Virus record (IMG/VR): IMGVR_UViG_3300030376_006603
Location: 1 to 33,901 of that record
Length of the DNA: 33,901 nt
Strand: one strand, 5' to 3'
Origin: a virus
Lineage: Duplodnaviria > Caudoviricetes
Positions 2,720 to 16,691 of the stretch are shown here, piece by piece. A program made the translations under genes and the position numbers. The notes under the pieces are model-generated. The model searched no databases. It was not told the origin of the DNA and saw only the letters and a program-made list of their open reading frames with translations. Every line of letters begins with the position of its first letter. Within the stretch, counting starts at the first letter, position 1.

Positions 2720-3036
2720 TTGCCGTTAATATACCTCTTGTATTCTGCTTTGACAAGTGGAATAACCATATAATCCACAATTCTTACTAAAGCCTCTTCT
2801 GTATTATCGCAATCGAGAATGTTAGATAACCCGCCAACTCCTAAAGCTGCATGATGAGCTTCATGAATCAAAGTATCTAACTGCTCCTCTGGACTAAGAC
2901 CTTTTCTGATCATAATAACCCTCTTGTCAAAATCCATTTGCCCGAAATCATCCATCTCTTTGAATACAACTTTGAACTTCATCCCTCCCACATTTATTGT
3001 GGAAGGGGGCTTGTAAATCTTTTTTCTTTGTGCCAT
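2716..3036 (-). CDS. HExxH metallopeptidase-like phage protein
   Basis: FGQMDFDKRVIMI...DTLIHEAHHA...EEALV; TAATG coupling to ruvB. Confidence 0.75.
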   Translation of the reverse strand: MAQRKKIYKPPSTINVGGMKFKVVFKEMDDFGQMDFDKRVIMIRKGLSPEEQLDTLIHEAHHAALGVGGLSNILDCDNTEEALVRIVDYMVIPLVKAEYKRYINGK

Positions 3037-3956
3037 TACCCTATCTTTTCTAATGCTTTAACTCCTTTACCTGTGATCTCTCTCTTGCCATCGATTTTCA
3101 TAAACCCATTCTTCAAGAGAAATACCTCTGAATCTTTTTGTAATGCAGTCCTAGACATACCAGTAACAGCAGACAACATCTGCAAGGTGCAAGCTCCTCG
3201 ATCTTTCAAGATCCGCATCACCTGCAACTCGGTGTTATTGATACCATATGGCATAATGCCTAGCATGTCACATAAATTATTCCACTCTTTTTTGCCAAAT
3301 CGAGATTTGTTATTGACTTCAGCCCATGCGCTGATCTCCAATGCTCTCTTGATAGCAGATCTCGCATTACTTCGAACCGTCTGGCAGATCTCTTTAAGAA
3401 CATTATCCTCGAACTTAATCCAGTCTAATTTTCTTTGCAGTATGCCACCCAACTGCTCTGCACTGTAAGGCTCGAAATCAAGTTGAGTAAGGCGATCTTT
3501 AAACGGAGGGAAGAGTTTATCAAGCTCTGTAGTAGCGAACAGGAAAGTCTGACGCTCGAACTCGAAGAACAATGTGGATTCACCGAACTCAAATCTCTTT
3601 GTCTTTGCTCCCTCTACGTTAAATATTGTAAGGAATGCCATCTCCAGATCTTTCGGTAGTGCGTGACACTCATCCAAAAGAATGGTAACGTCCTTATCTA
3701 AAATAGCAGGAATAAAAACTTGCTCAAAGAACTGCTCCGCATTTCGAATGGTAGAACAGTTGATTTCGATCATTGGTTTCTTAAGAGACTGGGCAAAAGC
3801 TTTTGCGAACTCTGTCTTACCTAGTCCCTTGGCTCCGTTAAAAAGAATAAAAGGAAGCGTTCCTGTAGCTTTCTTTGCTCTGCTGTAAAACTTGAGACGC
3901 TTTTTAAGTGTCTCCTGTCCAATCAGCCCATCAAACATATCAGTGGTATTGCTCAT
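3036..3956 (-). CDS. ruvB: RuvB-like Holliday junction branch-migration AAA+ ATPase
   Basis: FDGLIGQ, Walker A GAKGLGKT, Walker B LLDECH, sensor-1 FATT, Arg-finger KDRL, sensor-2 SNAR, C-terminal winged-helix region (EVFLLKNGFM..GKREIT); 306 aa. Confidence 0.88.
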   Translation of the reverse strand: MSNTTDMFDGLIGQETLKKRLKFYSRAKKATGTLPFILFNGAKGLGKTEFAKAFAQSLKKPMIEINCSTIRNAEQFFEQVFIPAILDKDVTILLDECHALPKDLEMAFLTIFNVEGAKTKRFEFGESTLFFEFERQTFLFATTELDKLFPPFKDRLTQLDFEPYSAEQLGGILQRKLDWIKFEDNVLKEICQTVRSNARSAIKRALEISAWAEVNNKSRFGKKEWNNLCDMLGIMPYGINNTELQVMRILKDRGACTLQMLSAVTGMSRTALQKDSEVFLLKNGFMKIDGKREITGKGVKALEKIG

Positions 3957-4201
3957 TACTCAAATGTGTTTACGGTAAATTCGATTCTCTCTTCTGTTTC
4001 TTCTACTTTAGCGGGGACAGGATCGATTGTCAAGGATTCTTGCGCTTCGATTACATCTTCCAGCCAACGCTTGGATACTACAATGGTCGCTTGATTGGTC
4101 ATACCTACATTACGCAAGCGATCAGACAAGTCTTTGAGTCTGATCTTAGTGAATGAAGTAGAACCTTTCTTGCGTCCTCTTTTCTTTGGTGTTTCGCTCA
4201 T
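3956..4201 (-). CDS. small protein with AT-hook-like basic N-terminus and acidic C-terminus
   Basis: MSETPKKRGRKKGSTSF...EETEERIEF; start set at ATG 4201, just downstream of a promoter; TAATG coupling to ruvB. Confidence 0.75.
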   Translation of the reverse strand: MSETPKKRGRKKGSTSFTKIRLKDLSDRLRNVGMTNQATIVVSKRWLEDVIEAQESLTIDPVPAKVEETEERIEFTVNTFE

Positions 4202-4210
4202 ATGGTGGGT

Positions 4211-4238
4211 ATTATACATGGCTCGAAACCCTTCGCAA
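4211..4238 (-). promoter_or_regulatory. sigma70-like promoter of the ruvB operon
   Basis: TTGCGA-16 nt-TATAAT-9 nt-ATG with an upstream A-tract. Confidence 0.6.
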
Positions 4239-4468
4239 GTCTTTTTTTGCATTTTAATTATTTTTTTTTCCCATAAATGTAATTGATATAATATTCTTAC
4301 AACGATTTTAATCGGATGTAATTAGATAGGCCGACCGCAACAACACAAAAAAAATGCGTAACTAACTTTTAACTAATTACGCAAAAAAAATATCTTGATA
4401 AGATTTAAAATTTAATTTAATTTTTTTTTATTCTTTTTTAAAAATTTTAATTCTTTTATTTGAAAAAA

Positions 4469-4515
4469 AATCATTCGATCTGGGACTTATTTGGCTCACA
4501 ATCATTCGATCTGGG
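4469..4515. repeat. 16-bp direct repeat AATCATTCGATCTGGG
   Basis: Exact copies at 4469-4484 and 4500-4515; the second includes the formyltransferase stop codon. Confidence 0.85.
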
Positions 4516-5302
4516 GGTCTATCCATTTAGGATAAGGAGCATTATTAGATATTTTAAAAATCTTCTTAAAATCATCACTCCAATCGTTATTTATCAAAGA
4601 ATCTTTAGGAGTTCTTGGTGGCATGTATACATTTAGCCCATTAGATAATGAATTGTTCAAAATATTTACAGCATGGAAGCTATCTGTATGTTTGTTTATC
4701 TTTACATCCCATTTAGTATTTTCTTGAGGGACGTAATTTCCATCTAAAACATCTCGTAAAGCTTCTATTGTTAAATCATCACACCTCTCGGTAAATTCTA
4801 ACTCGGAGCAGTTGCTATTGTAATTAAATTTTTTTACTTTTAGAATTCTACCAGAATCTATCTTCTTGTCTATTTCCATTATAGACACTCCCCACTCGCC
4901 AATATTAAGCATCCTACCCCAAACTAATGATGCTCCTCCTTGCACATCAGGGAGGACAGCGCCATGATTGCCTATAACATCAAAAGAATTTATAATGTAT
5001 TCAGGAATAATTCTCGAATCACCTAATGTGATAATTAAATCAACTTTTTTGTCAGTGCAAATCTTGTAAAACAAATCCCAATCATCTGACTTTATAAGTT
5101 TCGGGGCTTTTTTACAGTCATAAGAATCAATAAAATGATCTAATGATACAGAATTTACTTTTTTGATAAGAGATTGTTCATTTAGACCAAGCACAACTTC
5201 TAAACTAATAGAAGGCATAACCCTTAAGGCTGCGAGACCTTTAAGAGTTAAACGTGTGCTGCCTACAACTGCTACTTTAATGACAGAATCTTTTTCGACC
5301 AT
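4502..5302 (-). CDS. formyltransferase family protein (Formyl_trans_N; probably sugar-nucleotide N-formyltransferase)
   Basis: GNHGAVLPDVQGGASLVW and GVSIMEIDKKIDSGRIL match the N10-formyl-THF transferase N/H/D motifs; no Fmt-type C-terminal domain recognisable. Confidence 0.85.
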   Translation of the reverse strand: MVEKDSVIKVAVVGSTRLTLKGLAALRVMPSISLEVVLGLNEQSLIKKVNSVSLDHFIDSYDCKKAPKLIKSDDWDLFYKICTDKKVDLIITLGDSRIIPEYIINSFDVIGNHGAVLPDVQGGASLVWGRMLNIGEWGVSIMEIDKKIDSGRILKVKKFNYNSNCSELEFTERCDDLTIEALRDVLDGNYVPQENTKWDVKINKHTDSFHAVNILNNSLSNGLNVYMPPRTPKDSLINNDWSDDFKKIFKISNNAPYPKWIDPQIE

Positions 5303-5826
5303 CTCTTAGCCATCTCATTGTAACCTTCGTGAGTAAAATGAACCCCGTCAATCAAATATTTTTCCATATCGTCCATACAACAGATATCAAATTCAAGACG
5401 TTTAGACAAGTTATCAATAACTTTATTATACTTTGTAGTCCAATTTCTATTTTTTGCGTAGTAAGGGCTAAAAGTCAAAGCGGGTAGAGTCCCGACGATA
5501 GGAATCATTCCATTAACCTTAATAGACTTGATGATTTGTGTTAAATTATCCTCATAAATGTCAAGTGGAGTGGGTTTTTTAGTATCATTCGTGCCTATAA
5601 GAAGTAAACATATTTTACAATCTTTATTAGACTTTATAATATTCCAAGATCTTCTAAGTAAATCAGAGCTTGTTTCTCCATTTATTCCATAATTATGACA
5701 GATATAAAACTCTTCAGTTTCTTCCGATAAAATCTTACCCAATTCAGCAGGATAAGAACGTCCGTATCTATCTCTAGCTCCATAAGTTAAAGAGTCTCCG
5801 AGGCATAGTATCTCATTCCAGATCAT
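5272..5826 (-). CDS. SGNH/GDSL hydrolase
   Basis: Blocks GDSLT, GING, GTND and DGVH all present. Confidence 0.93.
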   Translation of the reverse strand: MIWNEILCLGDSLTYGARDRYGRSYPAELGKILSEETEEFYICHNYGINGETSSDLLRRSWNIIKSNKDCKICLLLIGTNDTKKPTPLDIYEDNLTQIIKSIKVNGMIPIVGTLPALTFSPYYAKNRNWTTKYNKVIDNLSKRLEFDICCMDDMEKYLIDGVHFTHEGYNEMAKRWSKKILSLK

Positions 5827-5843
5827 TTTATTATTATATATGA

Positions 5844-6314
5844 TTAAACGACTCTTTCAAACCAAGAAGGGATTTCTCTTTTGCTCCATTTAGCGAAGTA
5901 AGCTTTTTCTCCGTTGTAATAAGAACGATAAGCTGTGACAGAGCATTCGTTTTTGTATTCATCTGGCATTGCTTGAGCAAACTTGGTCAGACCAATACGT
6001 GGTAGATCTAATTTGTGGTAGTTGCATCCACACCAATGGATAGCTTGTAAAGATTTATGAACCTTACCATAGCGTCTAGTATACTCTTGGCACATAGCGT
6101 AAGCGTGAGAAAGTAGCCATTCGTAATTTTCTTCTGATTCTCTTGCCCATTTAGTGCATGGGTGGTTGTAGAAGGCTCGTTTGTATGGAGCATCTCCCTT
6201 GGGAAAGACAGCGCAAAGCATTTGAGCTGATTCAAGAATCATTTTCACTACATGCTTATCGCACAATTGTTGCGCGGCTATCTTGGGGTCGGTATCTACT
6301 GCGAATATGTTCAT
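5844..6314 (-). CDS. pyrimidine-dimer DNA glycosylase-like phage protein
   Basis: MNIF...DKHVVKMILESAQML...NHPCTKW...EYTRRYGKVH...FAQAMPDEYK, a widespread phage family; start at ATG 6314. Confidence 0.75.
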   Translation of the reverse strand: MNIFAVDTDPKIAAQQLCDKHVVKMILESAQMLCAVFPKGDAPYKRAFYNHPCTKWARESEENYEWLLSHAYAMCQEYTRRYGKVHKSLQAIHWCGCNYHKLDLPRIGLTKFAQAMPDEYKNECSVTAYRSYYNGEKAYFAKWSKREIPSWFERVV

Positions 6315-6319
6315 GTCGC

Positions 6320-7093
6320 TCAAATAATAGACCAATCGCATTTCCAGTCAAGCAATTGTTGTTTTGTTTTTTTCGTATATGGAGTTCGGAAAGATAAATC
6401 TTTTTGTATGTATTCAGCTCTCTTTGCCTCTTTTACCACAGAGCTGTGAACGTTATTTTCGTGAAATCTGTAGTAATAAAGCCCGTCTGTAACATAAAAA
6501 CATTTATTTTCCCCTGCCATTTCGACCATTGGTATACACAGAGCTACATCGACTCCATATTCAAAAAAGTTATTGTTTTTATCTCTTAAATCTACATTTT
6601 TAATGTTCTTTAATAAGAAAAATTTATAGGATCTCAAATGTGTTAAACAAAAAGTTTGATTCCTTAATGATACAGACCAATTTATTTCTGAATAAAAGTC
6701 TTCTGGACATCGAAAACGTGAAGAATGGGTAATTCCACCGTAAGTAAACCAATAACCTTTTGAGTATATTTCTTTTACATACGATAGAACGTTTGGATGA
6801 AGGAAATAGTCATCACCATCTAAAATAATAATTACATCTTCGTCATTAGGTTCGGCGTGGTGAACAAAATTTAATGTCTGATTAAATGTTAATCCATTAT
6901 TGTTCTTGTTACTAAGGATTTTTATTCTTGAGTCACCATTGGATGCTTTTTTTGCTACCTTTACAGTATTATCAGTGCTTGCATCCTCTATAATATACAT
7001 CTCCCATTCACTCTCATTTTGAGCTAACACACTTTCGATGCACTCTTTTATAAATGCTTCGCAATTGTAACAGGTAGTAAGTATTTTAAACAT
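6320..7093 (-). CDS. glycosyltransferase family 2 (GT-A fold)
   Basis: TCYNCEAFIKECIESVLAQ, EDASTDNT, LDGDD (DxD), LYYYRFH. Confidence 0.92.
   Translation of the reverse strand: MFKILTTCYNCEAFIKECIESVLAQNESEWEMYIIEDASTDNTVKVAKKASNGDSRIKILSNKNNNGLTFNQTLNFVHHAEPNDEDVIIILDGDDYFLHPNVLSYVKEIYSKGYWFTYGGITHSSRFRCPEDFYSEINWSVSLRNQTFCLTHLRSYKFFLLKNIKNVDLRDKNNNFFEYGVDVALCIPMVEMAGENKCFYVTDGLYYYRFHENNVHSSVVKEAKRAEYIQKDLSFRTPYTKKTKQQLLDWKCDWSII
6324..6351 (-). promoter_or_regulatory. sigma70-like promoter inside the 3' end of the GT2 gene
   Basis: TTGACT-16 nt-TATTAT-9 nt-ATG. Confidence 0.55.
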
Positions 7094-7304
7094 CTTCTTT
7101 CAATATCTTTTCGATATCGTATTCGTAGAACCTTAAACCAAGAACAACGCAATCCCAAAGAAAAGTTTCTAAAGTGGGACTGGGATTTATTTCTTCTTTT
7201 AAAGAATTATAAATATTTTTTTTCTCTTTATTAGAATCTATGTCAATCTGACGGATTTTTTCTGATGCTTCCTTAATTAAAGCTAGTTTTTCTTCAGCGT
7301 TCAT
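7086..7304 (-). CDS. hypothetical protein
   Basis: MNAEEKLAL...; TAATG coupling with the upstream small ORF. Confidence 0.7.
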   Translation of the reverse strand: MNAEEKLALIKEASEKIRQIDIDSNKEKKNIYNSLKEEINPSPTLETFLWDCVVLGLRFYEYDIEKILKEDV

Positions 7305-7459
7305 TACCAATTCTTTATAATATTAGCTATAATAAATAAATTACAGACAATAGCCTGAAAAATAATTAGAGTTCTGATAAAAGCTACACAATCAGCTTCA
7401 TGGTCTTTACCCTGCTTTTCTCCTAATGCTTTTGCCCACAACCTCCAAACATTTTTCAC
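7304..7459 (-). CDS. small membrane protein of a common aquatic-phage family (51 aa, not in ORF track)
   Basis: GTG start; MKNVWRLWAKALGEKQGKDHEADCVAFIRTLIIFQAIVCNLFIIANIIKNW*; GTGA and TAATG overlaps with neighbours. Confidence 0.8.
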   Translation of the reverse strand: MKNVWRLWAKALGEKQGKDHEADCVAFIRTLIIFQAIVCNLFIIANIIKNW

Positions 7460-7914
7460 GGCATATCTCCTTCTCCGACAGCATACGTTTGCTTATAATG
7501 AAGACCTTCGTTACCGTTTTGCCCGATAACATTCATACGCTTCTCTGCTTGAATCTCTTCTTCACCAGTTGGTAATTTGGAAACTTGTTGTTCGATCTGG
7601 GATCTTTCTTCCATCAACATCGCTTTAGCTAATATCGCGTAATTTACGATATCATCGCAAGCGTCCTCTACTGTTTCATTTGGAACAGAAAGTTCTTTAT
7701 CGTTAGTGAATGAGCGGATTCTTTGAATCTTATCAATCACACGCAACAACAACCCTTGAACTGGGTGGATGCCTAGCATTTTAGATGCATTAAAATTAGC
7801 AAACACATCAGTTGCGCCTTTGCCACCAGTGTAATCGCTATTTTTTTGTTTCATGATCGCCTTGCAAGCATTGCAAGTGTCATCGTGGAGTTGTAGTAGT
7901 TCTTTATTTGTCAT
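7456..7914 (-). CDS. DUF1599 / nucleotide-modification-associated domain 1-like protein
   Basis: KNSDY...FANF...LLRVIDKIQRI...ETVEDACDDIVNYAIL; extra C-terminal RMNVIGQNGNEGLHY motif. Confidence 0.75.
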   Translation of the reverse strand: MTNKELLQLHDDTCNACKAIMKQKNSDYTGGKGATDVFANFNASKMLGIHPVQGLLLRVIDKIQRIRSFTNDKELSVPNETVEDACDDIVNYAILAKAMLMEERSQIEQQVSKLPTGEEEIQAEKRMNVIGQNGNEGLHYKQTYAVGEGDMP

Positions 7915-7930
7915 TTTTTAAATATTCCAG

Positions 7931-8596
7931 TTAAATTTCTTTTTCCTTTCGGTAATATATGGTAACTTCTATATCGTCTTTTTTAGTAATTCCTATCCAA
8001 TATATATAATGATTTTTGTATGTATTCAGCCATTTATCTATATTTTCAATATTACATTTATAATTTGACAATAATGATTTTATCTTGGATTTGTAATCAT
8101 TTATTTTATATGAATTAATAAGAAAATGATACGAATTCAATATGTAACTATGTGTTTGATCATATTTTTCATATACCCCTGTTTCATCTTTTATATCGAA
8201 TAAAGTGTAAAATAATGATGATTTATCGCGTCCTATAAAAGTGTCTAATTCATACTTTTTAAACTTTTCGATGAATTCATAATGACGAATTGAATATTTA
8301 TCCTTACGTTTTTCCATACCATATATCATCTCATTAAATTTAGATGTAATATATAGTTTCGAAACAGATGTAGTTTTATCAATACCATAAATTATTTCGA
8401 GTTTATCCATTGATTTAAACAAATCATTATAGATAAATACCAATTTATCATCAACATCATGTTTTTTGAAAATATTTTCGACAGTTATATCATTATCTAT
8501 ATTATTTGTATAAGCATATGTGATTCTGTTATTATTGTATAGGGTTGAACGTGTAAATTTTATTGAACGTTCGACAATGACAGATTCTCCATGCAT
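7931..8596 (-). CDS. hypothetical protein, compositionally foreign (very AT-rich)
   Basis: 221-aa ORF rich in K/N/Y/I; no motif recognised. Confidence 0.75.
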   Translation of the reverse strand: MHGESVIVERSIKFTRSTLYNNNRITYAYTNNIDNDITVENIFKKHDVDDKLVFIYNDLFKSMDKLEIIYGIDKTTSVSKLYITSKFNEMIYGMEKRKDKYSIRHYEFIEKFKKYELDTFIGRDKSSLFYTLFDIKDETGVYEKYDQTHSYILNSYHFLINSYKINDYKSKIKSLLSNYKCNIENIDKWLNTYKNHYIYWIGITKKDDIEVTIYYRKEKEI

Positions 8597-8611
8597 TCTA
8601 AATATATAAGG

Positions 8612-8920
8612 TTATTCAATTGGCTTCCTCGCTAGATGCGTAGAAGAAATATTATATTCTTTTGAATGCTTATTACTCTTAGCTATAGATGTAAAGGTAA
8701 GACTGTCTTGGGGTGCAGCAGGACCACCGTAGCCACTATCTTCATCGATCATGTTTAGCATTTTCTCCAGTTGATACTTGGTAAGAGTGACCTTTACTGG
8801 AATTTCTTTTTGTCTGTTGTAAGTCACAACGAATTCTTCATTAAAAATAATTTTATCTTTTTTAAGATAAATTAAAGTAGCGGCAGTCGCAATTCCTGCG
8901 GATAGTAATATGTATTTCAT
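8612..8920 (-). CDS. hypothetical protein with N-terminal hydrophobic segment
   Basis: MKYILLSAGIATAATLIYL; TAATG coupling. Confidence 0.75.
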   Translation of the reverse strand: MKYILLSAGIATAATLIYLKKDKIIFNEEFVVTYNRQKEIPVKVTLTKYQLEKMLNMIDEDSGYGGPAAPQDSLTFTSIAKSNKHSKEYNISSTHLARKPIE

Positions 8921-9156
8921 TAGTCTATTAGTAATTCTACTATTTCTTCGTCTGTGAACCTTTCGGGGTATTCAGATGCTTCAATCAGTAAATTAAGTTT
9001 TTCTTGTTCGCATTTATCCTCAACGGTGTCTTCTATTATAGTATTATAATCTATTTGATCCTCAATAAAATATAAAAATATTTGGACAAATACAAATACT
9101 AAAAGGCCGAATAGAATACCTACTGTGAAAGCTTTTAAAAACTCTTTCTTAGACAT
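8920..9156 (-). CDS. single-pass membrane protein with acidic tail
   Basis: AFTVGILFGLLVFVFVQIFLYFI hydrophobic run. Confidence 0.75.
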   Translation of the reverse strand: MSKKEFLKAFTVGILFGLLVFVFVQIFLYFIEDQIDYNTIIEDTVEDKCEQEKLNLLIEASEYPERFTDEEIVELLID

Positions 9157-9466
9157 CTTTTACAAACTTGCCATCGACCATCTTGCCAGTTCTGTCTTTG
9201 ATTTCGTTGTATGCTTGCTCCAGACAAGTGGTAGGATCAAGATCCATCATTTTGGCAGCGATGATAATAGTCACAAGCATATCGCCAATACCATCAGCTA
9301 TTTCAGCATGATCATTGCCATGAAAATCATTCTTTACTGCCTCTATTGTTTCATTCAACTCTTCTTGAGTCTTATCTAATTGAGCCAAAGGATCTCCATC
9401 ATTGAAAATACCTCTCTCTTCTGCCCATTTTATGACATACAAACTTAATTCGTAAAACGATTTCAT
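9149..9466 (-). CDS. MazG-like nucleotide pyrophosphohydrolase
   Basis: WAEERGI...QLDKTQEELNE...ADGIGDMLVT...AYNEIKDRTGKMVDGKFVK (EExxE...DxxGD). Confidence 0.88.
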   Translation of the reverse strand: MKSFYELSLYVIKWAEERGIFNDGDPLAQLDKTQEELNETIEAVKNDFHGNDHAEIADGIGDMLVTIIIAAKMMDLDPTTCLEQAYNEIKDRTGKMVDGKFVKDV

Positions 9467-9768
9467 TAGTTATTATTATTGTTGTTCTTTTTTTGTTCCA
9501 TTCTTTGGATATGTTTATCCCAAATAGATTCTTCTTGAGGGGGAACTTGAAAGTCAGCACGTTGAAAATCTTTAGAGACACCAAAAATTCTCTTTAACCT
9601 TCTAGCCCGATGCGCTTCTACAGACTTCTTGTAGATTTGCAAGGGAAATATAACAAGGGAATTAAAAAAAGCACAAATCCCAATAAATATTGCCAAAAGC
9701 AAACCCACTGTCAATCCTGCCACTAGGCTAAATAAACCGTATCCTAATTTTGCGTAATCATATTTCAT
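9466..9768 (-). CDS. membrane protein
   Basis: Start MKYDYAK at 9768; long hydrophobic stretch followed by a basic tail. Confidence 0.7.
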   Translation of the reverse strand: MKYDYAKLGYGLFSLVAGLTVGLLLAIFIGICAFFNSLVIFPLQIYKKSVEAHRARRLKRIFGVSKDFQRADFQVPPQEESIWDKHIQRMEQKKNNNNNN

Positions 9769-9982
9769 AAACAACTGTGTAATTATCAGGTTTGATGCCA
9801 ACAACATTGAACTCAATGTATTCAGCAGCTTCGTCTACATTCATGCCAGACTTAGAAAAATAGTCAAGCATTTTTTTATGAGAATAAACAAGAAGCCCTC
9901 TTTGGTCAGTCCCAATGATGCAATCATCTAGGCCATCAAACTTTATAGCCTCCTCGCATAAATTAAATTCCTCTAATTCCAT
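9758..9982 (-). CDS. hypothetical phage protein
   Basis: FDGLDDCIIG...VYS...DEAAEYIEFNVVG pattern common in aquatic phages. Confidence 0.8.
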   Translation of the reverse strand: MELEEFNLCEEAIKFDGLDDCIIGTDQRGLLVYSHKKMLDYFSKSGMNVDEAAEYIEFNVVGIKPDNYTVVYEI

Positions 9983-10083
9983 ATAAAATAATTAGTCAGC
10001 ATGTAAAAACAATAAAGTAAAAAAGCTAAATAAACAAAAGATTCAAGTCTAGACATGTCGATTTTAATGGTAATGTTCGACAT
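9973..10083 (-). CDS. possible small membrane peptide (36 aa, not in ORF track)
   Basis: MSNITIKIDMSRLESFVYLAFLLYCFYMLTNYFIWN*; fills the gap between co-oriented genes. Confidence 0.45.
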   Translation of the reverse strand: MSNITIKIDMSRLESFVYLAFLLYCFYMLTNYFIWN

Positions 10084-10092
10084 GTATTACAT

Positions 10093-10326
10093 TCATGCGT
10101 TCACATTCGACGCATGTTCTTCAGGAAAATACCTGCGAAGACAATCCAAACGATCATCTGCATCAACCAAAAGTTCCAGAGCTTGCCTTGCATTCTTCCA
10201 GTAATCGTCTGTAGAATGATCGCCAATGCCTACGGCATGGTCAGATAGTAGATCAAGAGAAAGCAATGCCTTGTTTCTCTCCGCAATAGCTTCGCTATGA
10301 AGCATTTCATATAGGTTTTTTTTCAT
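10093..10326 (-). CDS. hypothetical phage protein
   Basis: 77-aa helical protein with VGIGDHS motif; ATGA overlap with the upstream ORF. Confidence 0.8.
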   Translation of the reverse strand: MKKNLYEMLHSEAIAERNKALLSLDLLSDHAVGIGDHSTDDYWKNARQALELLVDADDRLDCLRRYFPEEHASNVNA

Positions 10327-10454
10327 TTATTTTCTTCTTTTTTTCTTTGCTGCTCCTCAATAAAGCGTTCTTGTTGTGTATTAAGTCCTAAAAAACGGCA
10401 CACAAATAGAACAAAGGCTATCCAGGCGATAATAATAAATATCCATAGTAGCAT
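10323..10454 (-). CDS. small single-pass membrane protein (43 aa, not in ORF track)
   Basis: MLLWIFIIIAWIAFVLFVCRFLGLNTQQERFIEEQQRKKEENK*; starts 7 nt after a consensus -10. Confidence 0.7.
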   Translation of the reverse strand: MLLWIFIIIAWIAFVLFVCRFLGLNTQQERFIEEQQRKKEENK

Positions 10455-10461
10455 GGAGTCA

Positions 10462-10489
10462 ATTATACTTAGAATTAGAGTCGTGTCAA
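10462..10489 (-). promoter_or_regulatory. consensus sigma70 promoter
   Basis: TTGACA-16 nt-TATAAT-7 nt-ATG. Confidence 0.75.
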
Positions 10490-10517
10490 TAGATTTTTTC
10501 AAGAATCTAAATCATCC

Positions 10518-11054
10518 TCAAACACTCTCTATAGGTAGATCATATTCCTGATACGGAAGAATCCAATGTTCGCAATCTGCGATAAATATGTCTTGTAGAG
10601 TCACCATTGACATCAAATCTTTCCTACCTTTTCTCCTGTAACCTTTGTAAAGACACTCATTTACTTTTGTTACAGTGTCTCTTAAGTCGCATTTTTTCTT
10701 TGCCAACTGGTATAAATCAGAGTTTTTAACATGCAAAAAGAAGGCTCCTACATCAAAAGCGATCCAGACTGGAGTCCCACTTTCATTGCACCAACCAGTT
10801 TTGCCAGCTACATTCAAAAATTCTAAGAGTATTTTGCCTTCTCTTGTAGAGTTTTTTAAACCTTTTAGATCTACAGTCTCGCCCTCTACAACAAAGTCCA
10901 CATGTCCGATATCTTGGGCCTTACCTGTCTTTTTAATAGATAAACCCGCTGATAAACAAGAGTGGTGATACCTCCTCACAGACTCATCCATCAATTTTTT
11001 TGTATGAGCCACATGGCTTAAACCAGACAAGCCTTTAGCTTTATTAGATATCAT
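10518..11054 (-). CDS. PD-(D/E)XK-like nuclease, phage family
   Basis: GHVDFVV...VDLKG...LLEFLNVAGKTGW...WIAF. Confidence 0.65.
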   Translation of the reverse strand: MISNKAKGLSGLSHVAHTKKLMDESVRRYHHSCLSAGLSIKKTGKAQDIGHVDFVVEGETVDLKGLKNSTREGKILLEFLNVAGKTGWCNESGTPVWIAFDVGAFFLHVKNSDLYQLAKKKCDLRDTVTKVNECLYKGYRRKGRKDLMSMVTLQDIFIADCEHWILPYQEYDLPIESV

Positions 11055-11061
11055 GAGTTGT

Positions 11062-11089
11062 ATTGTAACATTAAATTAATTTAAGTCAA
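11062..11089 (-). promoter_or_regulatory. sigma70-like promoter with extended -10
   Basis: TTGACT-16 nt (ending TGT)-TACAAT-7 nt-ATG. Confidence 0.65.
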
Positions 11090-11102
11090 GTAAATATACA
11101 GC

Positions 11103-11130
11103 AAAACCCCCTACCCATAAGGAAGGGGGT
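11103..11130 (-). terminator. rho-independent terminator
   Basis: ACCCCCT...AGGGGGT stem followed by a T-run on the minus strand, downstream of the 11163-11345 gene. Confidence 0.7.
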
Positions 11131-11162
11131 GTCTAGAGATTAATCTAAAAATAACCCGTAGA

Positions 11163-11345
11163 CTATTTCTGCTTGGCTTTCCCGATATTTAACGCAGCCC
11201 AATCAATTATAGAATAGATTTTGGACCAAATCGTCCCCTCTTTAGGAGTTGGGGTGGCAGCAGCGATTGCAGACGCAAAAGCAATACCAGCAGTCACTAC
11301 ACCAAACCAAGGGTTATCTTGAACTAGTTGAAGAATGATATCCAT
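11163..11345 (-). CDS. small membrane protein, possibly holin-like
   Basis: MDIILQL...GVVTAGIAFASAIAAATPTPK...IDWAALNIGKAK; GTGTAA motif 8 nt upstream of the ATG. Confidence 0.7.
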   Translation of the reverse strand: MDIILQLVQDNPWFGVVTAGIAFASAIAAATPTPKEGTIWSKIYSIIDWAALNIGKAKQK

Positions 11346-11382
11346 ACTATTATTTACACTATTAAGCATGATTATGAAGTGA

Positions 11383-12132
11383 TTAGTTTTCTCTTATCTC
11401 ATTATTGTATGACCTAGCACAGTCAATAATAGACAAAAAACTGCCGTATTTTTCAGAAGTTTTGACTAATGCAGAAGTATCTTTTGGAAAGCAATGACCC
11501 CCAAAACCTCTTTGATCTGTAATAAATGAATGACTTTCTCCTATACGATTATCAGCAGTTGTATGCTTTCTAACTTCTTCGTAATCTATATTCATTTTAT
11601 CGCACAAATCATAGAGCTGATTAAAGAATGAGACTTTTAGTGCTAAAAAATTATTTTTAGCATATTTTGTCATTATTAACGATTCTGGATCAGACTCTAC
11701 ACATTCTAGAAATCTAAATATTTTTGACCAGAACTCAAACCCCTCACCGCCAATAAGGATAGACTTCATGCTATCAATATCTTGCTCCCAAGAATCCTGC
11801 CTTAAGAATTCTGGGCTAAAGCTTATATTGTGATTAGGGAATAGATCCGTTAACTCTCGCCATCCTTCTAAACAGATAGTGCTTTTAATTAAGATGGGAA
11901 CATCTGGACTCTCGTTAATCACATCTTTAACATGCCCCATATAACAAGAACCGTCCTCTTGTTGGGGAGTAGCGACACAAATAACAACTGCGTCTGTGTC
12001 GCTAGGTATCCCATTATTATATGTGAGAAACGCTGGGTCACTTATTGTGACACCGCACTCTTGATCATTATCAGTAATTAATTTCTCGTAAGCCTTACCT
12101 ACAAACCCATATCCTGCGATTGTTATGTTCAT
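11383..12132 (-). CDS. UDP-glucose/GDP-mannose dehydrogenase family, short form lacking the C-terminal domain
   Basis: GYGFVG, ICVATP, IKST, SPEFLR, KYAKNNFLALKVSFFN, GFGGHCFPKD (catalytic Cys); 249 aa. Confidence 0.92.
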   Translation of the reverse strand: MNITIAGYGFVGKAYEKLITDNDQECGVTISDPAFLTYNNGIPSDTDAVVICVATPQQEDGSCYMGHVKDVINESPDVPILIKSTICLEGWRELTDLFPNHNISFSPEFLRQDSWEQDIDSMKSILIGGEGFEFWSKIFRFLECVESDPESLIMTKYAKNNFLALKVSFFNQLYDLCDKMNIDYEEVRKHTTADNRIGESHSFITDQRGFGGHCFPKDTSALVKTSEKYGSFLSIIDCARSYNNEIREN

Positions 12133-12139
12133 ATATTTT

Positions 12140-12637
12140 TTAACTAAATTCGTTCAAGTCTTCGTTTTTTATCTCCCAATTATCTGCTCTCAAAGGGAAA
12201 GGCTCTCTACCTCTCATGCGAACCGTCCCTTTAGGATAGAAAGATGCCCTCTTTTTAAAATCTTTTTTAGAAACCCAACCACAGATAGAGAGGTTTTTCT
12301 TTTTGGTATTCAAAGAAGTAAAAATGTAAGCCTCTGATTTGTGTTTCAATTGCACATCAAAAACATTATTTATGTAAAAAGGTTTAGGATCTACAGTCCT
12401 ATTCATAGACTTTATATCAGCCTTCTGTCCTTTATACATTATATCATAACCACCATCAAACCCTTTAGGCTCAATCAAAGGTAGCTCTAAATATTGCCTC
12501 ACCATATTTTCGGAAAGTATCCCAATAAATTGTTCTTTGGGACTCCCATCATCTTTGCCTCTTTGCCCGAAGTTATTTTCTTCTACTAATTTTTTACTAT
12601 AATCGTAAATTTCTTTCTTGATAGGTAACGTTATCAT
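12140..12637 (-). CDS. PD-(D/E)XK restriction-endonuclease-like protein
   Basis: GILSENMV...FDGGYDI...ADIKSM...YIF...ICGW. Confidence 0.6.
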   Translation of the reverse strand: MITLPIKKEIYDYSKKLVEENNFGQRGKDDGSPKEQFIGILSENMVRQYLELPLIEPKGFDGGYDIMYKGQKADIKSMNRTVDPKPFYINNVFDVQLKHKSEAYIFTSLNTKKKNLSICGWVSKKDFKKRASFYPKGTVRMRGREPFPLRADNWEIKNEDLNEFS

Positions 12638-13632
12638 TTATTAATCGAATTAAAGTCTGCTTCAGTAACCGTATAGTTTGTTGATACACCCGCCTGTATA
12701 TCAGCGGTCGTAATCATAGCGTTAATATCTGAAATATAATCTGCCACAGGGGTTCCACCTCCTGCACCGCCATATGTCCAGACAGTCACAAGCACAAGCT
12801 CGCCGTCAAAAACTAAAAATGCAGGGTTGCCACTGTCACCTCCAATTTTGTTCTCATGGAAAATACGTCTTTTAGAATCTGTAGGTGTTCGCATTCGACC
12901 ACCAGCACTCCAATCTATGATGAGAGCCTTTTCTTCTTGGTCCAACCCAAGGCAAGGTATCTTGATTTTAGATGTATTATCTAAATAACTCTTGTAATTG
13001 CTAGGCATTACAGAGCAAGGCTTTATCGTGGAGGGCAGGTCACTGTCCAAAGTATAGATTGTTAAGTCTGGATAGTGAGGTTTATAGTCGGGGTGTCTAG
13101 CTTTTCCTGTCACGGTGCGGTCATGCACTGTGCCATTCTTCTCTACAAACCTAACTACTGCCCCGACAGAATACTCGTAGTGAGCGGCTCCTATAACGTG
13201 TCTTGGAGTTAATAGTGTTCCTGCTTTCTTATGGCCCCCACTACTATTCCACGGAGACAAGCATGTAATATCTAAGTCTGCACACCATAAATCTTCGTTT
13301 CTCATATAACCAGAAGTTGCATGATCTTGAGAGATGTATACCTTACCGTTGACCTCCATACTCATGGACTCATTTAGTAGGTCATCAATTTGTTTGGAAC
13401 AATGAAGAGCAAAGGAAAATGGCTGACTAGTCGAACCGATACCAACGCTGGTCGAACCAATGCCGACACTCGTCGAACCGATGCCAACGCTCGTCGAACC
13501 GATACCGACGCTCGTCGAACCGATACCGACGCTCGTCGAACCGATACCGACTCTTGGATAAACGACTTCGTTAACCGCTTTCTTGTAACTTTTAAGTAAG
13601 TTAATTATTTTTTTTATAAATCCAAAAAACAT
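12634..13632 (-). CDS. trypsin-like serine protease with N-terminal VGIGSTS repeats
   Basis: GTLLTPRHVIGAAH (His), PDLTI (Asp), GGDSGNP (Ser). Confidence 0.8.
   Translation of the reverse strand: MFFGFIKKIINLLKSYKKAVNEVVYPRVGIGSTSVGIGSTSVGIGSTSVGIGSTSVGIGSTSVGIGSTSQPFSFALHCSKQIDDLLNESMSMEVNGKVYISQDHATSGYMRNEDLWCADLDITCLSPWNSSGGHKKAGTLLTPRHVIGAAHYEYSVGAVVRFVEKNGTVHDRTVTGKARHPDYKPHYPDLTIYTLDSDLPSTIKPCSVMPSNYKSYLDNTSKIKIPCLGLDQEEKALIIDWSAGGRMRTPTDSKRRIFHENKIGGDSGNPAFLVFDGELVLVTVWTYGGAGGGTPVADYISDINAMITTADIQAGVSTNYTVTEADFNSINK
13426..13551. repeat. 6 x 21-bp coding tandem repeat (VGIGSTS)
   Basis: Units such as GCTCGTCGAACCGATACCGAC; three identical, three with synonymous changes only. Confidence 0.97.
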
Positions 13633-13937: not shown

Positions 13938-13965
13938 ATTATACAGCAAGGTAGGGATATGTCTA
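13938..13965 (-). promoter_or_regulatory. sigma70-like promoter
   Basis: TAGACA-16 nt-TATAAT-5 nt-ATG. Confidence 0.6.
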
Positions 13966-14586
13966 CTGGACTATTCTGATTCTACTTCTTATTTTAGAAA
14001 CATGACGTTTCTTTTCTAAGACAGAACCACCCTCCCTGCTTCCAGCTCCATTTGTATTACCTTCGATAGTAACTACATAACCACTTGAGTCGATATCTTT
14101 AACAGCTAGACCTATATGAGAGAATGAAAAAACAACAATGTCACCAGCTTTTATGTCCTCATTGCTTGGCTTGCGGAGATCTACCCCTTTGCCGTCCTGT
14201 TGTTTAGCCCAATTTTCGAAGTCCCAAGCCCCCGCAGTTCTAGGACGTTTGAAAGAAACATCTTCTCCTTCTATAGCTTCTCTGACCAACCAACAAATAA
14301 AAGCGGCACACCAAGGCCAACCTTTATCTGCATCTAACCAAGTAGCAGCTTTATATTGATCAACTCTAGGACCGCAATTGCTACCATCTACTTCTGAAAC
14401 ACCTATTTCTCCTCTCGCCAAAGAAACCATTTTTTCTGCAATATCTCCTTTGGGAGTTGTTTCATTCTTAGTGGATATTCGAGCTAATATAGCATTCCAA
14501 GTTACAGGCCCATCGACACCATCAGCAGAAACACCAAGGAGTTTTTGAACAGCTTTTACAACTTCTTTTTTACCTTTAAAATTCAT
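13963..14586 (-). CDS. endolysin: peptidoglycan-binding domain plus CHAP amidase/peptidase
   Basis: VKAVQKLLGVSADGVDGPVTW (PG-binding), PWCAAFI (Cys), SHIGL (His), TIEGNT; start MNFKG, TAATG-coupled to the upstream gene. Confidence 0.9.
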   Translation of the reverse strand: MNFKGKKEVVKAVQKLLGVSADGVDGPVTWNAILARISTKNETTPKGDIAEKMVSLARGEIGVSEVDGSNCGPRVDQYKAATWLDADKGWPWCAAFICWLVREAIEGEDVSFKRPRTAGAWDFENWAKQQDGKGVDLRKPSNEDIKAGDIVVFSFSHIGLAVKDIDSSGYVVTIEGNTNGAGSREGGSVLEKKRHVSKIRSRIRIVQ

Positions 14587-15191
14587 TACGCACATTTTCT
14601 ACTAAATCCAGTACATATCGACATTACAACACATAATACGATAGCCAAGATCATAAAATCTCTATAAGTCGAAATTTCATTATTTAAAATTTCAGATTGA
14701 GCTTCATTATAATACATTTTTATATCCATTATTTGATTAATAGCGTCAATCGTGGGGTCGGTCATCTCATACATTACAGGAACTGAAGCTTTAATTTTAT
14801 CTACCTCACCAGCTTGACCCCATTTAATTAACTTATCTACATACAAAGTTATTTTTTCTTCTTGATCAAAAACAAATTGAGCGAATTCTTTTTCTTCAAA
14901 AGTAACATTTTTTTTATAATCTTTTAGAAGTTTATCTTTATTAGCCCTTTCTTCTTCTAAAACATCCACCATTTCTAAAGGAGTAATGACTCCATGAGAA
15001 GTTTTAACTACGGAATCGACTATAATTACTCCATACCAATCGAAACACATCCCTATTTCCATAATAGAAGACTCCGATTGCCTAGCATTTTCTTTTAAGG
15101 TTGATTCGATATTCTCCGTAAGAATTAAACCTTTCCAAGCAAAGCAAAGGGAAATAGCAGCTAAACAGTAAACTATAAATTTAGGTCTCAT
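14586..15191 (-). CDS. two-TM membrane protein with chemoreceptor-type four-helix-bundle periplasmic domain, no cytoplasmic output domain
   Basis: TM1 FIVYCLAAISLCFAW, TM2 FMILAIVLCVVMSICTGF, about 155 helical residues between them; DWYGVIIVD...HG, Y.....EEK and MY...DP motifs recall 4HB_MCP/Tar-type sensors. Confidence 0.7.
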   Translation of the reverse strand: MRPKFIVYCLAAISLCFAWKGLILTENIESTLKENARQSESSIMEIGMCFDWYGVIIVDSVVKTSHGVITPLEMVDVLEEERANKDKLLKDYKKNVTFEEKEFAQFVFDQEEKITLYVDKLIKWGQAGEVDKIKASVPVMYEMTDPTIDAINQIMDIKMYYNEAQSEILNNEISTYRDFMILAIVLCVVMSICTGFSRKCA

Positions 15192-15505
15192 CTTTTAATA
15201 AATTTCGCTGGGTTTTTAGCGAATTTTTCTCCTAGACGCACAATTCCAGCAATTATTTCAGGGCTAATTACACCAATAATACCATAAGTAACTGCTTTCG
15301 TAAGAGAGGATACATCTGTTTGCTCTAAAACAAACCAAGCAATACCAGCAGATATGGCTGCTGTTAATACTCTTTTTAATTGTTGTTTAATCGATAATCC
15401 ATTATCACCAGACAAAAGTCTAGCAAACATAGCTGCCGCACCGACTAGAGGCACTAACCATCCCCCATTTAAAAACTCTTTTAAAATAGACTTTTCAGGT
15501 TCCAT
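15188..15505 (-). CDS. putative holin
   Basis: 105 aa, 2-3 hydrophobic segments, basic C-terminus, first gene of the unit ending in the endolysin. Confidence 0.65.
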   Translation of the reverse strand: MEPEKSILKEFLNGGWLVPLVGAAAMFARLLSGDNGLSIKQQLKRVLTAAISAGIAWFVLEQTDVSSLTKAVTYGIIGVISPEIIAGIVRLGEKFAKNPAKFIKR

Positions 15506-15515
15506 GTTTAATTAA

Positions 15516-15521
15516 TTACAC
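15516..15521 (-). promoter_or_regulatory. GTGTAA putative late-promoter motif
   Basis: 10 nt upstream of the holin ATG and directly downstream of a terminator; same motif precedes three other late-type genes. Confidence 0.5.
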
Positions 15522-15528
15522 GGAATAT

Positions 15529-15557
15529 AAAAAAAGCCCCCCTTTCGGGAGGCTTTT
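15529..15557. terminator. rho-independent terminator (bidirectional shape)
   Basis: AAAAAAAGCCCCCC-TTTC-GGGAGGCTTTT downstream of the beta-barrel gene. Confidence 0.85.
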
Positions 15558-15581: not shown

Positions 15582-16274
15582 TTAGAATTTGTATTTAAAT
15601 CCTAGTCCAAAGTTCCAATCATGATCAAGACTGTATGGTGAGTTGTCTACATCATTATGGTTATAAGTAGCTTTAGCTGCAACTGAAAGCCCATTGCCAA
15701 AATCATAATCAACGACAGTTCCAACCTCTACTGCATTATAAGAGTTAGCGAAGTTAGATGTGATGAATGGAATGACACTAAGATTAGCGACAGGAGTTTC
15801 AAAGATGCGTGAGACAGTAAGTTCTACACCGTAAGAAGCGCTTGATCCAAGCTCATGCCAAACAGTTGTGCTTACGTCAGCTAACTCATGAGAGTAAGCT
15901 AAACCCAAACCAACCTGCTCCCAGTCACCAAAATCAGTTTCCACCTTTTGAAAAGATACTTTAGCATCGAAAGCTCGACCCAAAAGATCAACACCTTTAC
16001 TCCAAGAGACATCAACCTGTGAATCAGTGTCATCATCTGTTTCGAAGAGACCTACACCAGCAGAAAGAGATCCTCCTCCGACCGAAGTGCCGAGAAGAAG
16101 AGAATAATTAAATGCATCATCTCTTACTTTCAGACCCCTAGTGTTTGTTAATTCAGTATGAGAAACTCCAATATCTACAGCAATACCTTGAGTAAGATTA
16201 GAAGAAGTTTCAGTTCCCGCGCTACTAAAAGCAGCGCCCAATACAGTCATAAGACCAATTACTAGTTTTTTCAT
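15582..16274 (-). CDS. outer-membrane beta-barrel protein (porin-like)
   Basis: Sec signal MKKLVIGLMTVLGAAFSSA, alternating amphipathic strands, C-terminal BAM signal FGLGFKYKF. Confidence 0.85.
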   Translation of the reverse strand: MKKLVIGLMTVLGAAFSSAGTETSSNLTQGIAVDIGVSHTELTNTRGLKVRDDAFNYSLLLGTSVGGGSLSAGVGLFETDDDTDSQVDVSWSKGVDLLGRAFDAKVSFQKVETDFGDWEQVGLGLAYSHELADVSTTVWHELGSSASYGVELTVSRIFETPVANLSVIPFITSNFANSYNAVEVGTVVDYDFGNGLSVAAKATYNHNDVDNSPYSLDHDWNFGLGFKYKF

Positions 16275-16330: not shown

Positions 16331-16573
16331 TTATTTTTCAGAGTAAATCTCTCTTTCCAAGCGCCTAAACCGCGCATCTGAATGCCAAGTTTCATCAGTT
16401 TGAGGTGTATAGACACCCTCTTTAGTCTGTATCGGAAGACCCTGCTTCAGTTTTAGAGTAGAAGGCTGATAAATGTTTAAACTGTTTACGTTCATCAGCG
16501 AGTCGCTGGCGCAAGAGGTCAGCCCTATCAGCGTCATGATTAGTGCCAGTTTGCCTAAGTTTTTCAATTTCAT
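16331..16573 (-). CDS. lipoprotein, putative o-spanin (Rz1-like)
   Basis: Basic N-terminus, hydrophobic core, lipobox LTSC; begins inside the upstream ORF in its +1 frame. Confidence 0.65.
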   Translation of the reverse strand: MKLKNLGKLALIMTLIGLTSCASDSLMNVNSLNIYQPSTLKLKQGLPIQTKEGVYTPQTDETWHSDARFRRLEREIYSEK

Positions 16574-16691
16574 CGATAATTTGGTCTTCTGTTTTTTGAT
16601 GTTCTTTATGTAAGTCGTAATAAAATTTATTATTTTTTATATTTAAAAATAATTCTAAAGATTTTAAAATAGATTTAATTATAGCAAACAC
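16422..16691 (-). CDS. helical protein, putative i-spanin (Rz-like)
   Basis: GTG start, amphipathic N-terminus, coiled-coil-like body, overlaps the lipoprotein gene by 152 nt; TM segment is weak. Confidence 0.5.
   Translation of the reverse strand: MFAIIKSILKSLELFLNIKNNKFYYDLHKEHQKTEDQIIDEIEKLRQTGTNHDADRADLLRQRLADERKQFKHLSAFYSKTEAGSSDTD

Follow-up and report, generated by a model that had tools for sequence, protein, structure and literature searches.

Where lysis timing is known to be set from outside, as in phages T4 and ICP1, superinfection is the cue and lysis inhibition the response. In T4, RI inhibits the holin T on superinfection, and does so also when membrane-anchored (PMC11413866, available portion); in ICP1, ArrA is a non-essential antiholin, with TeaA as its partner (PMC7182436, likewise in part). 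In P1, LydB antagonises LydA, and is described in the accessible text of that report as having no predicted transmembrane (TM) domain and an unknown mechanism (PMC9025707). Extra lysis regulators include phiKZ gp143, Mu releasin gp25 and CSP1_021 (PMC12894885, PMC9239132 and PMC13577005, in the portions available), and N4 shows a further one (bioRxiv 2025.11.12.688109, in part). Among chemoreceptors, ligand binding in Tar slides helix 4 into TM2, and the MCP2201 dimer is joined through helices 1 and 4 (PMC10735184, available portion). The locus described here, in a linear virus record of 33.9 kb (33,901 nucleotides, the whole of which is called the window below; 31% complete), encodes a probable holin in overlap with a stand-alone chemoreceptor-type sensor.

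Layout of the locus

The window carries lambda-type tail genes on its plus strand; the holin, sensor and lysin genes are on the minus strand, with the following features:

15532..15557, minus: terminator-like hairpin (11 base pairs followed by a T run) at the end of the upstream beta-barrel gene
15516..15521, minus: GTGTAA motif, 10 nt before the holin start (from the sequence)
15188..15505, minus: holin-like membrane protein, 105 aa, related to LydA and holin superfamily III (from relatives, Atlas, AF2 and BFVD)
14586..15191, minus: stand-alone chemoreceptor-type sensor, 201 aa, consisting of TM1, four-helix bundle, TM2 and a 5-residue tail
15120..15176, minus: sensor TM1, residues 6-24 (from hydropathy; retained in hairpin-only variants)
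14697..15071, minus: sensor periplasmic four-helix bundle, about residues 41-165, with helices 1 and 4 most constrained
14601..14657, minus: sensor TM2, residues 179-197 (from hydropathy; retained in hairpin-only variants)
13963..14586, minus: endolysin, 207 aa from its TAATG start, weak PG-binding plus CHAP (from Pfam, PHROG and relatives)

An earlier note on this DNA had listed a terminator, a GTGTAA motif, a holin-like gene, a 201-aa gene and a CHAP endolysin gene linked by ATGA and TAATG overlaps, and all of these are in the sequence, the holin/sensor ATGA at 15191-15188 and the sensor/lysin TAATG at 14588-14584. The ORF tool starts the lysin at 14595; relatives use the ATG of TAATG at 14586 (207 aa), in agreement with the overlapping start that had been proposed. 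The same note's reading of the lysin as PG-binding plus CHAP holds for the CHAP domain (E 6.8e-8), with PHROG endolysin families matching at E 5e-16, and only weakly for the PG-binding part (E 0.056).

Hairpins comparable to the one 5' of the holin are also found in close relatives of the window. Across the whole window GTGTAA has 23 matches against a chance mean of 16.3, and 8 of 100 shuffles reach 23, so that it is not clearly enriched overall; within 30 nt of the holin start it is found in 26 of 69 representative loci, the background being about 0.009 per such stretch. ATAAATA, the core of the T4 late promoter, lies upstream of the holin in eight of the 69. GTGTAA is probably a phage promoter element (a literature search for the motif gave unrelated papers only), and its conserved position, together with the eight ATAAATA loci, suggests that the holin probably heads a separate late transcription unit.

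Directly upstream of the holin, at 15582-16274 (minus strand), is a gene whose 230-aa product starts with a signal peptide, ends in an aromatic residue and is likely a beta-barrel of the outer membrane. It holds this place in nearly all close relatives, at 36-98% identity, and is far more variable than the holin; since it also lies beside the hairpin-only variants described below, it is not tied to the sensor. At 16331-16691 (minus), overlapping genes for an 89-aa coiled-coil-like protein, with no clear TM helix, and an 80-aa predicted lipoprotein form a spanin-like pair that is conserved upstream in relatives. At 12634-13632 (minus), a 332-aa ORF has about six tandem 7-residue repeats near its N-terminus, their number differing among relatives, followed by what looks by eye like a trypsin-like region. 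The stretch 3036-12132 (minus) holds RuvB-like ATPase, formyltransferase-like, SGNH esterase-like, glycosyltransferase and nucleotide-sugar dehydrogenase-like genes, all under NCBIfam cut-offs, possibly a surface or virion glycosylation cluster. In several freshwater phages, guessed to infect Bacteroidota, a gene for a 144-aa secreted, beta-strand-rich protein with no Pfam or NCBIfam match lies 3' of the sensor (L349:3282-3716, L351:5989-6423, L346:6097-6531, L336:6078-6515).

The sensing half of a chemoreceptor

Neither the 201-aa nor the 105-aa protein of the window has a meaningful Pfam, PHROG or NCBIfam match, and their identities therefore come from relatives, profiles and folds. Hydropathy of the 201-aa protein peaks at residues 6-24 and 179-197; its ends are short and basic, the C-terminal tail being SRKCA, and the loop between the TM helices is acidic (30 D/E vs. 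16 K/R). Among 330 candidates, 197 are close relatives, nearly all of exactly 201 aa among the matches listed. A profile (A1) built from 59 close relatives and searched against 1.84 billion proteins found 53: distant stand-alone forms of 195-257 aa, fragments, and seven bacterial chemoreceptors or chemoreceptor fragments. These seven are matched via their N-terminal sensors (E 3e-6 to 1e-3), which are 4HB_MCP_1 domains according to Pfam (1e-10 to 1e-24). Alignment of the profile with the seven methyl-accepting chemotaxis proteins (MCPs) by hhalign (98.5%, E 1.8e-15, 144 columns) confirms the register more than it provides an independent test, because the seven had been chosen with the same profile. 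Independently of that choice, twenty of 65 diverse family members match PF12729 (4HB_MCP_1) directly at E<=0.01 (best 1.5e-11), several of them exceeding the 27-bit cut-off; the window's own protein has no match. In the Atlas, also independently, 4HB_MCP_1 and TarH clusters resemble the window sensor at 0.95-0.96. Residues D51, G67, Y92, E100, Y141 and P146 align to invariant MCP columns, the family being about 24% identical to the nearest MCP profile, and the closest cellular relatives are proteobacterial MCPs.

Atlas ranks 2 and 5 are clusters of 208-aa bacterial look-alikes, one of them 4HB_MCP_1/TarH, with Verrucomicrobiota commonest; these may be stand-alone cellular sensors or fragments.

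The AF2 model (pLDDT 85) has continuous helices arranged as an antiparallel four-helix bundle. Its top seven matches among 48,161 chains are all sensor bundles (the Vc1313, MCP2201, PcaY_PP, Adeh_2942, PilJ, Tsr and HK9 sensor domains; Z 12.5-13.6, rmsd 2.2-2.7 A, 121-155 residues), with unrelated helical bundles close behind at Z 12.4 and common bundles able to reach Z of about 13. Foldseek of the model against the PDB gave no match at E<=0.001, NarQ, Adeh_2942 and MCP2201 ranking top; PDB sequence searches matched only designed helical repeats with the sensor-family profile and nothing with a related MCP. The best viral fold match in BFVD, A0A8S5L4P1, is a 249-aa fragment with a 4HB MCP domain (E 1.9e-3, TM score 0.68) assigned to an ssRNA phage contig; it is either chimeric or was genuinely captured by an RNA phage.

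After TM2 the cytoplasmic tail has five residues in the window and a median of 12 (maximum 43, strongly basic) in 65 relatives. There is no HAMP, MCP or kinase domain, and the next gene is the lysin; a full methyl-accepting chemotaxis protein or sensor kinase was rejected on the five-residue tail and the absence of HAMP and output domains. What the 201-aa protein represents is a class I chemoreceptor's sensing half on its own, the signalling half being absent. This sustains the earlier note on several points: the order of TM1, helical region, TM2 and SRKCA agrees with the hydropathy peaks and the helical model; the attribution to four-helix-bundle chemoreceptor sensors agrees with profile, PF12729 family matches and predicted fold; the absence of HAMP and output domains is matched by the short tails of relatives; and where an extended coiled coil had been raised as the contrary outcome, the model is a compact four-helix bundle.

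In a quick tree, 46 stand-alone forms lie on one side of a branch from the seven MCPs (SH-aLRT 98), the outgroup of seven being small and 14 of the 46 being proteins without shown genomic context. A single capture event is plausible for the stand-alone sensors, judging from these sequences.

A probable holin as partner

The 105-aa protein is probably a holin, as predicted from its relatives and its model. PF16083 (LydA) is matched by 22 of 65 relatives at E<=0.01 (best 2e-6), at scores of 22-26 bits, under the 28.4 cut-off, with the window protein itself unmatched. Atlas look-alikes (0.91-0.92) have holin Pfams on 10-46% of members, and the named BFVD matches of the AF2 model (pLDDT 89) are mostly holins; the best PDB match (Z 6.9) is uninformative. 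The protein is small, multi-helix in the model, basic at its C-terminus and encoded beside a lysin. Its TM count rests on the model, because only one helix passes 1.5 in a 19-residue hydropathy scan. For a holin it is unusually conserved, at 35-60% across distant phages and with 17 invariant columns in 65 sequences.

About 680 IMG/VR stretches carry the holin patterns, the best 80 being kept in each of three scans; of the metagenome matches, 80 of 462 were kept. In a high-GC lineage with no lysin nearby, a second holin-like gene adjoins or runs into the start of the LydA-like one (L242:1104-1502, L286:4526-4984); these second genes have no holin family match at E<=0.01.

The conserved unit

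The holin-like gene lies upstream of the sensor in all 80 of the closest loci, and a CHAP lysin downstream in 77 (one of the other three ends with its contig, and two lack the lysin). The same LydA-like gene is directly upstream of 95 of 96 distinct sensor proteins, which come from loci fetched by sensor queries; the remaining one is at a contig end. The 95 junctions comprise 85 ATGA, nine TAATG and one longer overlap. Lambda-tailed, T4-like and other phages have the pair, in the company of T4-like neck genes, RNA ligase, dUTPase and sigma-like genes, or capsid-like genes, and also within lysis cassettes of other makeup, where M15 or GH19 lysins, spanin-like pairs and at times a second and clearer holin (PF05105, E 8e-10) accompany it; in one complete 68-kb record an M15 lysin, the holin and the sensor stand in a row. 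Such widely differing gene contexts indicate a mobile two-gene module.

By a count with five lysin queries, 34 of the 69 representatives have a lysin, belonging to one of four types, no more than 2 kb away: 23 of 45 with a sensor (8 CHAP, 9 GH19, 6 M15), 6 of 11 with a hairpin and 5 of 13 with no partner. A further 20 have none detected within 2 kb despite long flanks, 15 of the sensor-bearing representatives among them, and 15 have short flanks. The same five queries matched no lysin in the large, incomplete records G001, G002, G004, G005 and G006 of the unlinked lineages, and two large pair-bearing records (64% and 88% complete) yielded no gene of CHAP, 3D, PG-binding or M15 type. What is conserved as a unit is the two-gene pair of holin and sensor, whose neighbouring lysin varies or is not nearby. 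Of the three-gene lysis cassette in the earlier note, the holin-sensor link stands and the lysin does not, its type and nearness varying across relatives; as for linkage of the homologs to lysis genes, synteny gives holin coupling across distant phages, and neither of these two contrary outcomes named in the note, unlinked homologs or an extended coiled coil, was borne out.

The pair is carried by many uncultured aquatic phages. Neither sensor nor holin has a match among 50,697 GenBank phage records, and there is thus no cultured member and no host. Among 185,579 cellular genomes the holin patterns found one locus only, on a 1.8-kb MAG contig, 74% identical to the window's holin and probably phage DNA; in RNA runs, matches were only on short scattered contigs.

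Hairpin-only variants

In 454 loci, 446 holin ORFs are followed by a full sensor (360), a hairpin (31), nothing related (28), a contig end (26) or a broken partner (1), two rows having been recoded by hand; the 420 with enough flank thus include 31 with a hairpin only, 28 with no partner and one broken, and as these loci repeat contigs and were partly fetched by sensor queries, the numbers are counts and not frequencies. The hairpin-only partners are two-helix proteins of 71-93 aa. On a holin tree of 69 representatives (27 ORFs of <95 aa and one frameshifted row excluded), the three partner states need 15 changes; well-supported branches force at least three to hairpin and at least three to absence, and parsimony gives eight for hairpin.

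The 77-aa hairpin of L218 matches residues 1-34 and 170-212 of the 212-aa L148 sensor (45 of 77 identical), beside holins that are 94% identical. That of L438 matches marine sensors (42/81), and two hairpins of 71-72 aa match no clade clearly. Resemblance to local sensors indicates at least two independent in-frame deletions of the bundle that left both TM helices in place, and a job of its own for the TM pair beside the holin. The holin consensus residues are nearly identical whether a partner is present or not, A24 being the one that relaxes. Relatives can do without the sensor domain, and the partner is optional. In L214 (5318-5599), the periplasmic loop of a 93-aa hairpin has C-x-x-C-x-x-x-H where the bundle would be; this may be a redox site or bind a metal.

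Selection on the sensor

In the marine clade, 102 distinct genes (357 non-independent pairs at 82-97% identity, dS partly saturated) give dN/dS values of 0.016 for helix 1 (residues 41-67), 0.034 for helix 4, 0.046-0.081 for helices 2-3, 0.071 for TM1 and 0.115 for TM2, with 0.041 for the holin. Within this clade purifying selection acts strongly on the sensor domain, and so the bundle is not a decaying relic. Residues 43-54 are invariant there on all helix faces, acidic and aromatic ones included. Held across distant clades are G21, F50, D51, Y53, G54, Y92, E100, P146, N152, F179, L186 and a few hydrophobic sites; polar helix-1 residues besides D51 and Y53 are not, which makes one shared ligand doubtful. 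The constraint on helices 1 and 4 fits signalling, and equally dimerisation alone. C49 (15045-15047, minus), in helix 1, is the sole cysteine of the periplasmic domain, invariant in the marine clade and lost in distant ones; it could form a disulfide across a dimer.

Possible modes of action

The reading that we prefer, tentatively and at somewhat less than an even chance, is that the 201-aa protein is a cue-responsive holin regulator. For it speak the homology and fold, the fixed overlap with one holin family, nearby lysins of three unrelated types in 23 of 45 sensor-bearing representatives, the selection on helices 1 and 4, the retained hairpins and the precedents of T4 RI and P1 LydB. Against it count the dispensability of the partner, holin residues that hardly track its presence, the 15 sensor-bearing representatives with no lysin detected within 2 kb, the cassettes with a second holin, the variable polar residues of helix 1, and fold scores within reach of common helical bundles. 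The sequences suggest that sensor and holin likely pair, and the partner is likely a dispensable regulator of the holin, docking by way of its hairpin in the membrane and taking its input from a co-opted sensor. Overlap of the genes would give matched amounts of the two proteins; the sensor's two TM helices would pack against the 105-aa protein, which would form the lytic holes; and the periplasmic bundle, where kept, would modulate the contact between hairpin and holin. With a cytoplasmic tail of median 12 residues, the membrane is the only obvious output. A cue could move helix 4 and with it TM2, as in Tar and MCP2201, and so change holin oligomerisation. The default effect would be an antiholin-like delay, a guess from antiholin precedent, with delay and trigger both possible. 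Candidate cues are small metabolites and signals from the envelope or from superinfection; by analogy, a cue outside the inner membrane may set when the infected cell bursts. The narrower proposal that a small periplasmic molecule gates lysis, moving helix 4 and TM2 to hold or trigger the holes with no transcription or phosphorelay, is somewhat unlikely.

Another possibility, which we consider rather unlikely, is a constitutive holin accessory: the hairpin would bind the holin, as a fixed delay or an assembly aid, and the bundle would serve dimerisation or stability, with no sensing. The repeated origin of hairpin-only variants (at least three supported, eight by parsimony) speaks for this, as does their place in the same holin-to-CHAP slot in 6 of 11; so do helices 1 and 4, the most constrained ones, being also the dimer interface in MCP2201 (PMC10735184, in part) and P1 LydB being an antiholin with no known input in the available text (PMC9025707). 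A plain dimer, however, needs no invariance of residues 43-54 on all faces, and the 150-residue domain is kept in 45 of 69 lineages though a 77-residue hairpin exists.

A non-lytic membrane module, in which the 105-aa protein is a holin-fold channel or depolariser gated by the sensor for superinfection exclusion or host energy control, is unlikely. Nearness to lysis genes would then often be mere late expression, and the high conservation of the 105-aa protein, the location of the pair among neck, capsid, RNA ligase or dUTPase genes in several lineages, the two large records with none of the lysin matches sought and the cassettes that already have another holin would all fit. Lysins of four unrelated types nevertheless have the 105-aa gene as a neighbour, at 2 kb or less, in 34 of 69 representatives, 5 of the 13 partnerless ones among them, and the family and fold matches of the gene's product are holins. 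Distance from a lysin is also no obstacle to being a holin: the T4 holin is unlinked from its endolysin. Among other unlinked holins is that of P1 (PMC9025707, available portion).

The poisoning of host receptors, offered as an alternative in the earlier note, would make the protein a dominant-negative decoy or a ligand sink, forming dead heterodimers with host chemoreceptors or kinases or soaking up ligand. A receptor half with no output whose closest cellular relatives are proteobacterial MCPs is what such a decoy might look like, but it would need no overlap with one holin family in 95 of 96 cases, its identity to the nearest MCP profile is only about 24%, and hairpin-only variants lack the very part required. 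Divergence of the phage sensors moreover goes in step with that of the holin (r 0.95 over 2,080 pairs, mostly reflecting clade structure), and the fixed holin coupling and the hairpin-only variants leave this reading improbable. A spanin-like or structural envelope protein, suggested by the long helices and the place in a lysis cassette, is hardly credible: two inner-membrane helices round a compact four-helix bundle, with no lipobox or beta-barrel, are not a single anchor with an extended coiled coil or a lipoprotein partner, and a separate coiled-coil and lipoprotein pair is encoded upstream at 16331-16691.

If the cue-responsive reading is true, lytic phages would adjust the moment of lysis to the chemistry of nutrient-poor waters, with consequences for burst size and for the release of carbon in the sea and in fresh water. 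A ligand-gated holin of this kind would be without precedent as a holin under small-molecule control, and its sensor without precedent as a chemoreceptor module passing a signal laterally to a distinct membrane protein; synthetic biology, too, could make use of a holin that can be gated. Near-identical holins are found with the complete sensor, with the hairpin alone and with neither, and provide natural controls. The weaker, constitutive reading would still give a new, undescribed family of lysis accessory proteins.

Comparison with known systems

In the open-licence literature, supplements (whose annotation tables could name such genes) being outside its scope, no holin with a 4HB sensor was found, in line with the earlier note, which knew of no described lysis cassette with such a component. 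The locus is real and conserved, and its likely form of holin regulation, with a chemoreceptor-derived part, is apparently undescribed in print.

With the 4HB_MCP_1/TarH modules (MCP2201, PcaY_PP, Tsr, Tar, Vc1313, NarQ) the phage sensor shares the TM1-bundle-TM2 layout, fold, sequence homology, a helix-1 D-x-Y-x-x-x-I-V-D pattern and the Y92/E100 signature; unlike these receptors, it has no HAMP, MCP or kinase part, falls in one clade apart from the seven MCPs compared, and its gene overlaps that of a holin-family protein. The phiKZ, Mu and CSP1_021 regulators likewise tune holin or endolysin from genes in or near lysis cassettes, but in the available portions of the reports they are cytoplasmic or cytoplasm-facing where described, and none is a chemoreceptor-type sensor (PMC12894885, PMC9239132, PMC13577005). 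P1 LydA/LydB offers a holin of the LydA family that is transcribed together with its regulator and is not linked to the endolysin (PMC9025707, in part); in contrast to LydB, the partner here has two TM helices and a sensor bundle.

T4 T/RI and ICP1 TeaA/ArrA likewise have a periplasm-facing, optional holin partner, one that responds to an outside event (PMC11413866 and PMC7182436, portions available), and Pfam and PHROG searches detected no homology of the sensor to RI or ArrA. RI, in the same portion of its report, binds the periplasmic domain of T, whereas the 105-aa holin has only short loops, so that contact with the sensor must be mostly in the membrane, and the partner here is a co-opted small-molecule receptor domain.
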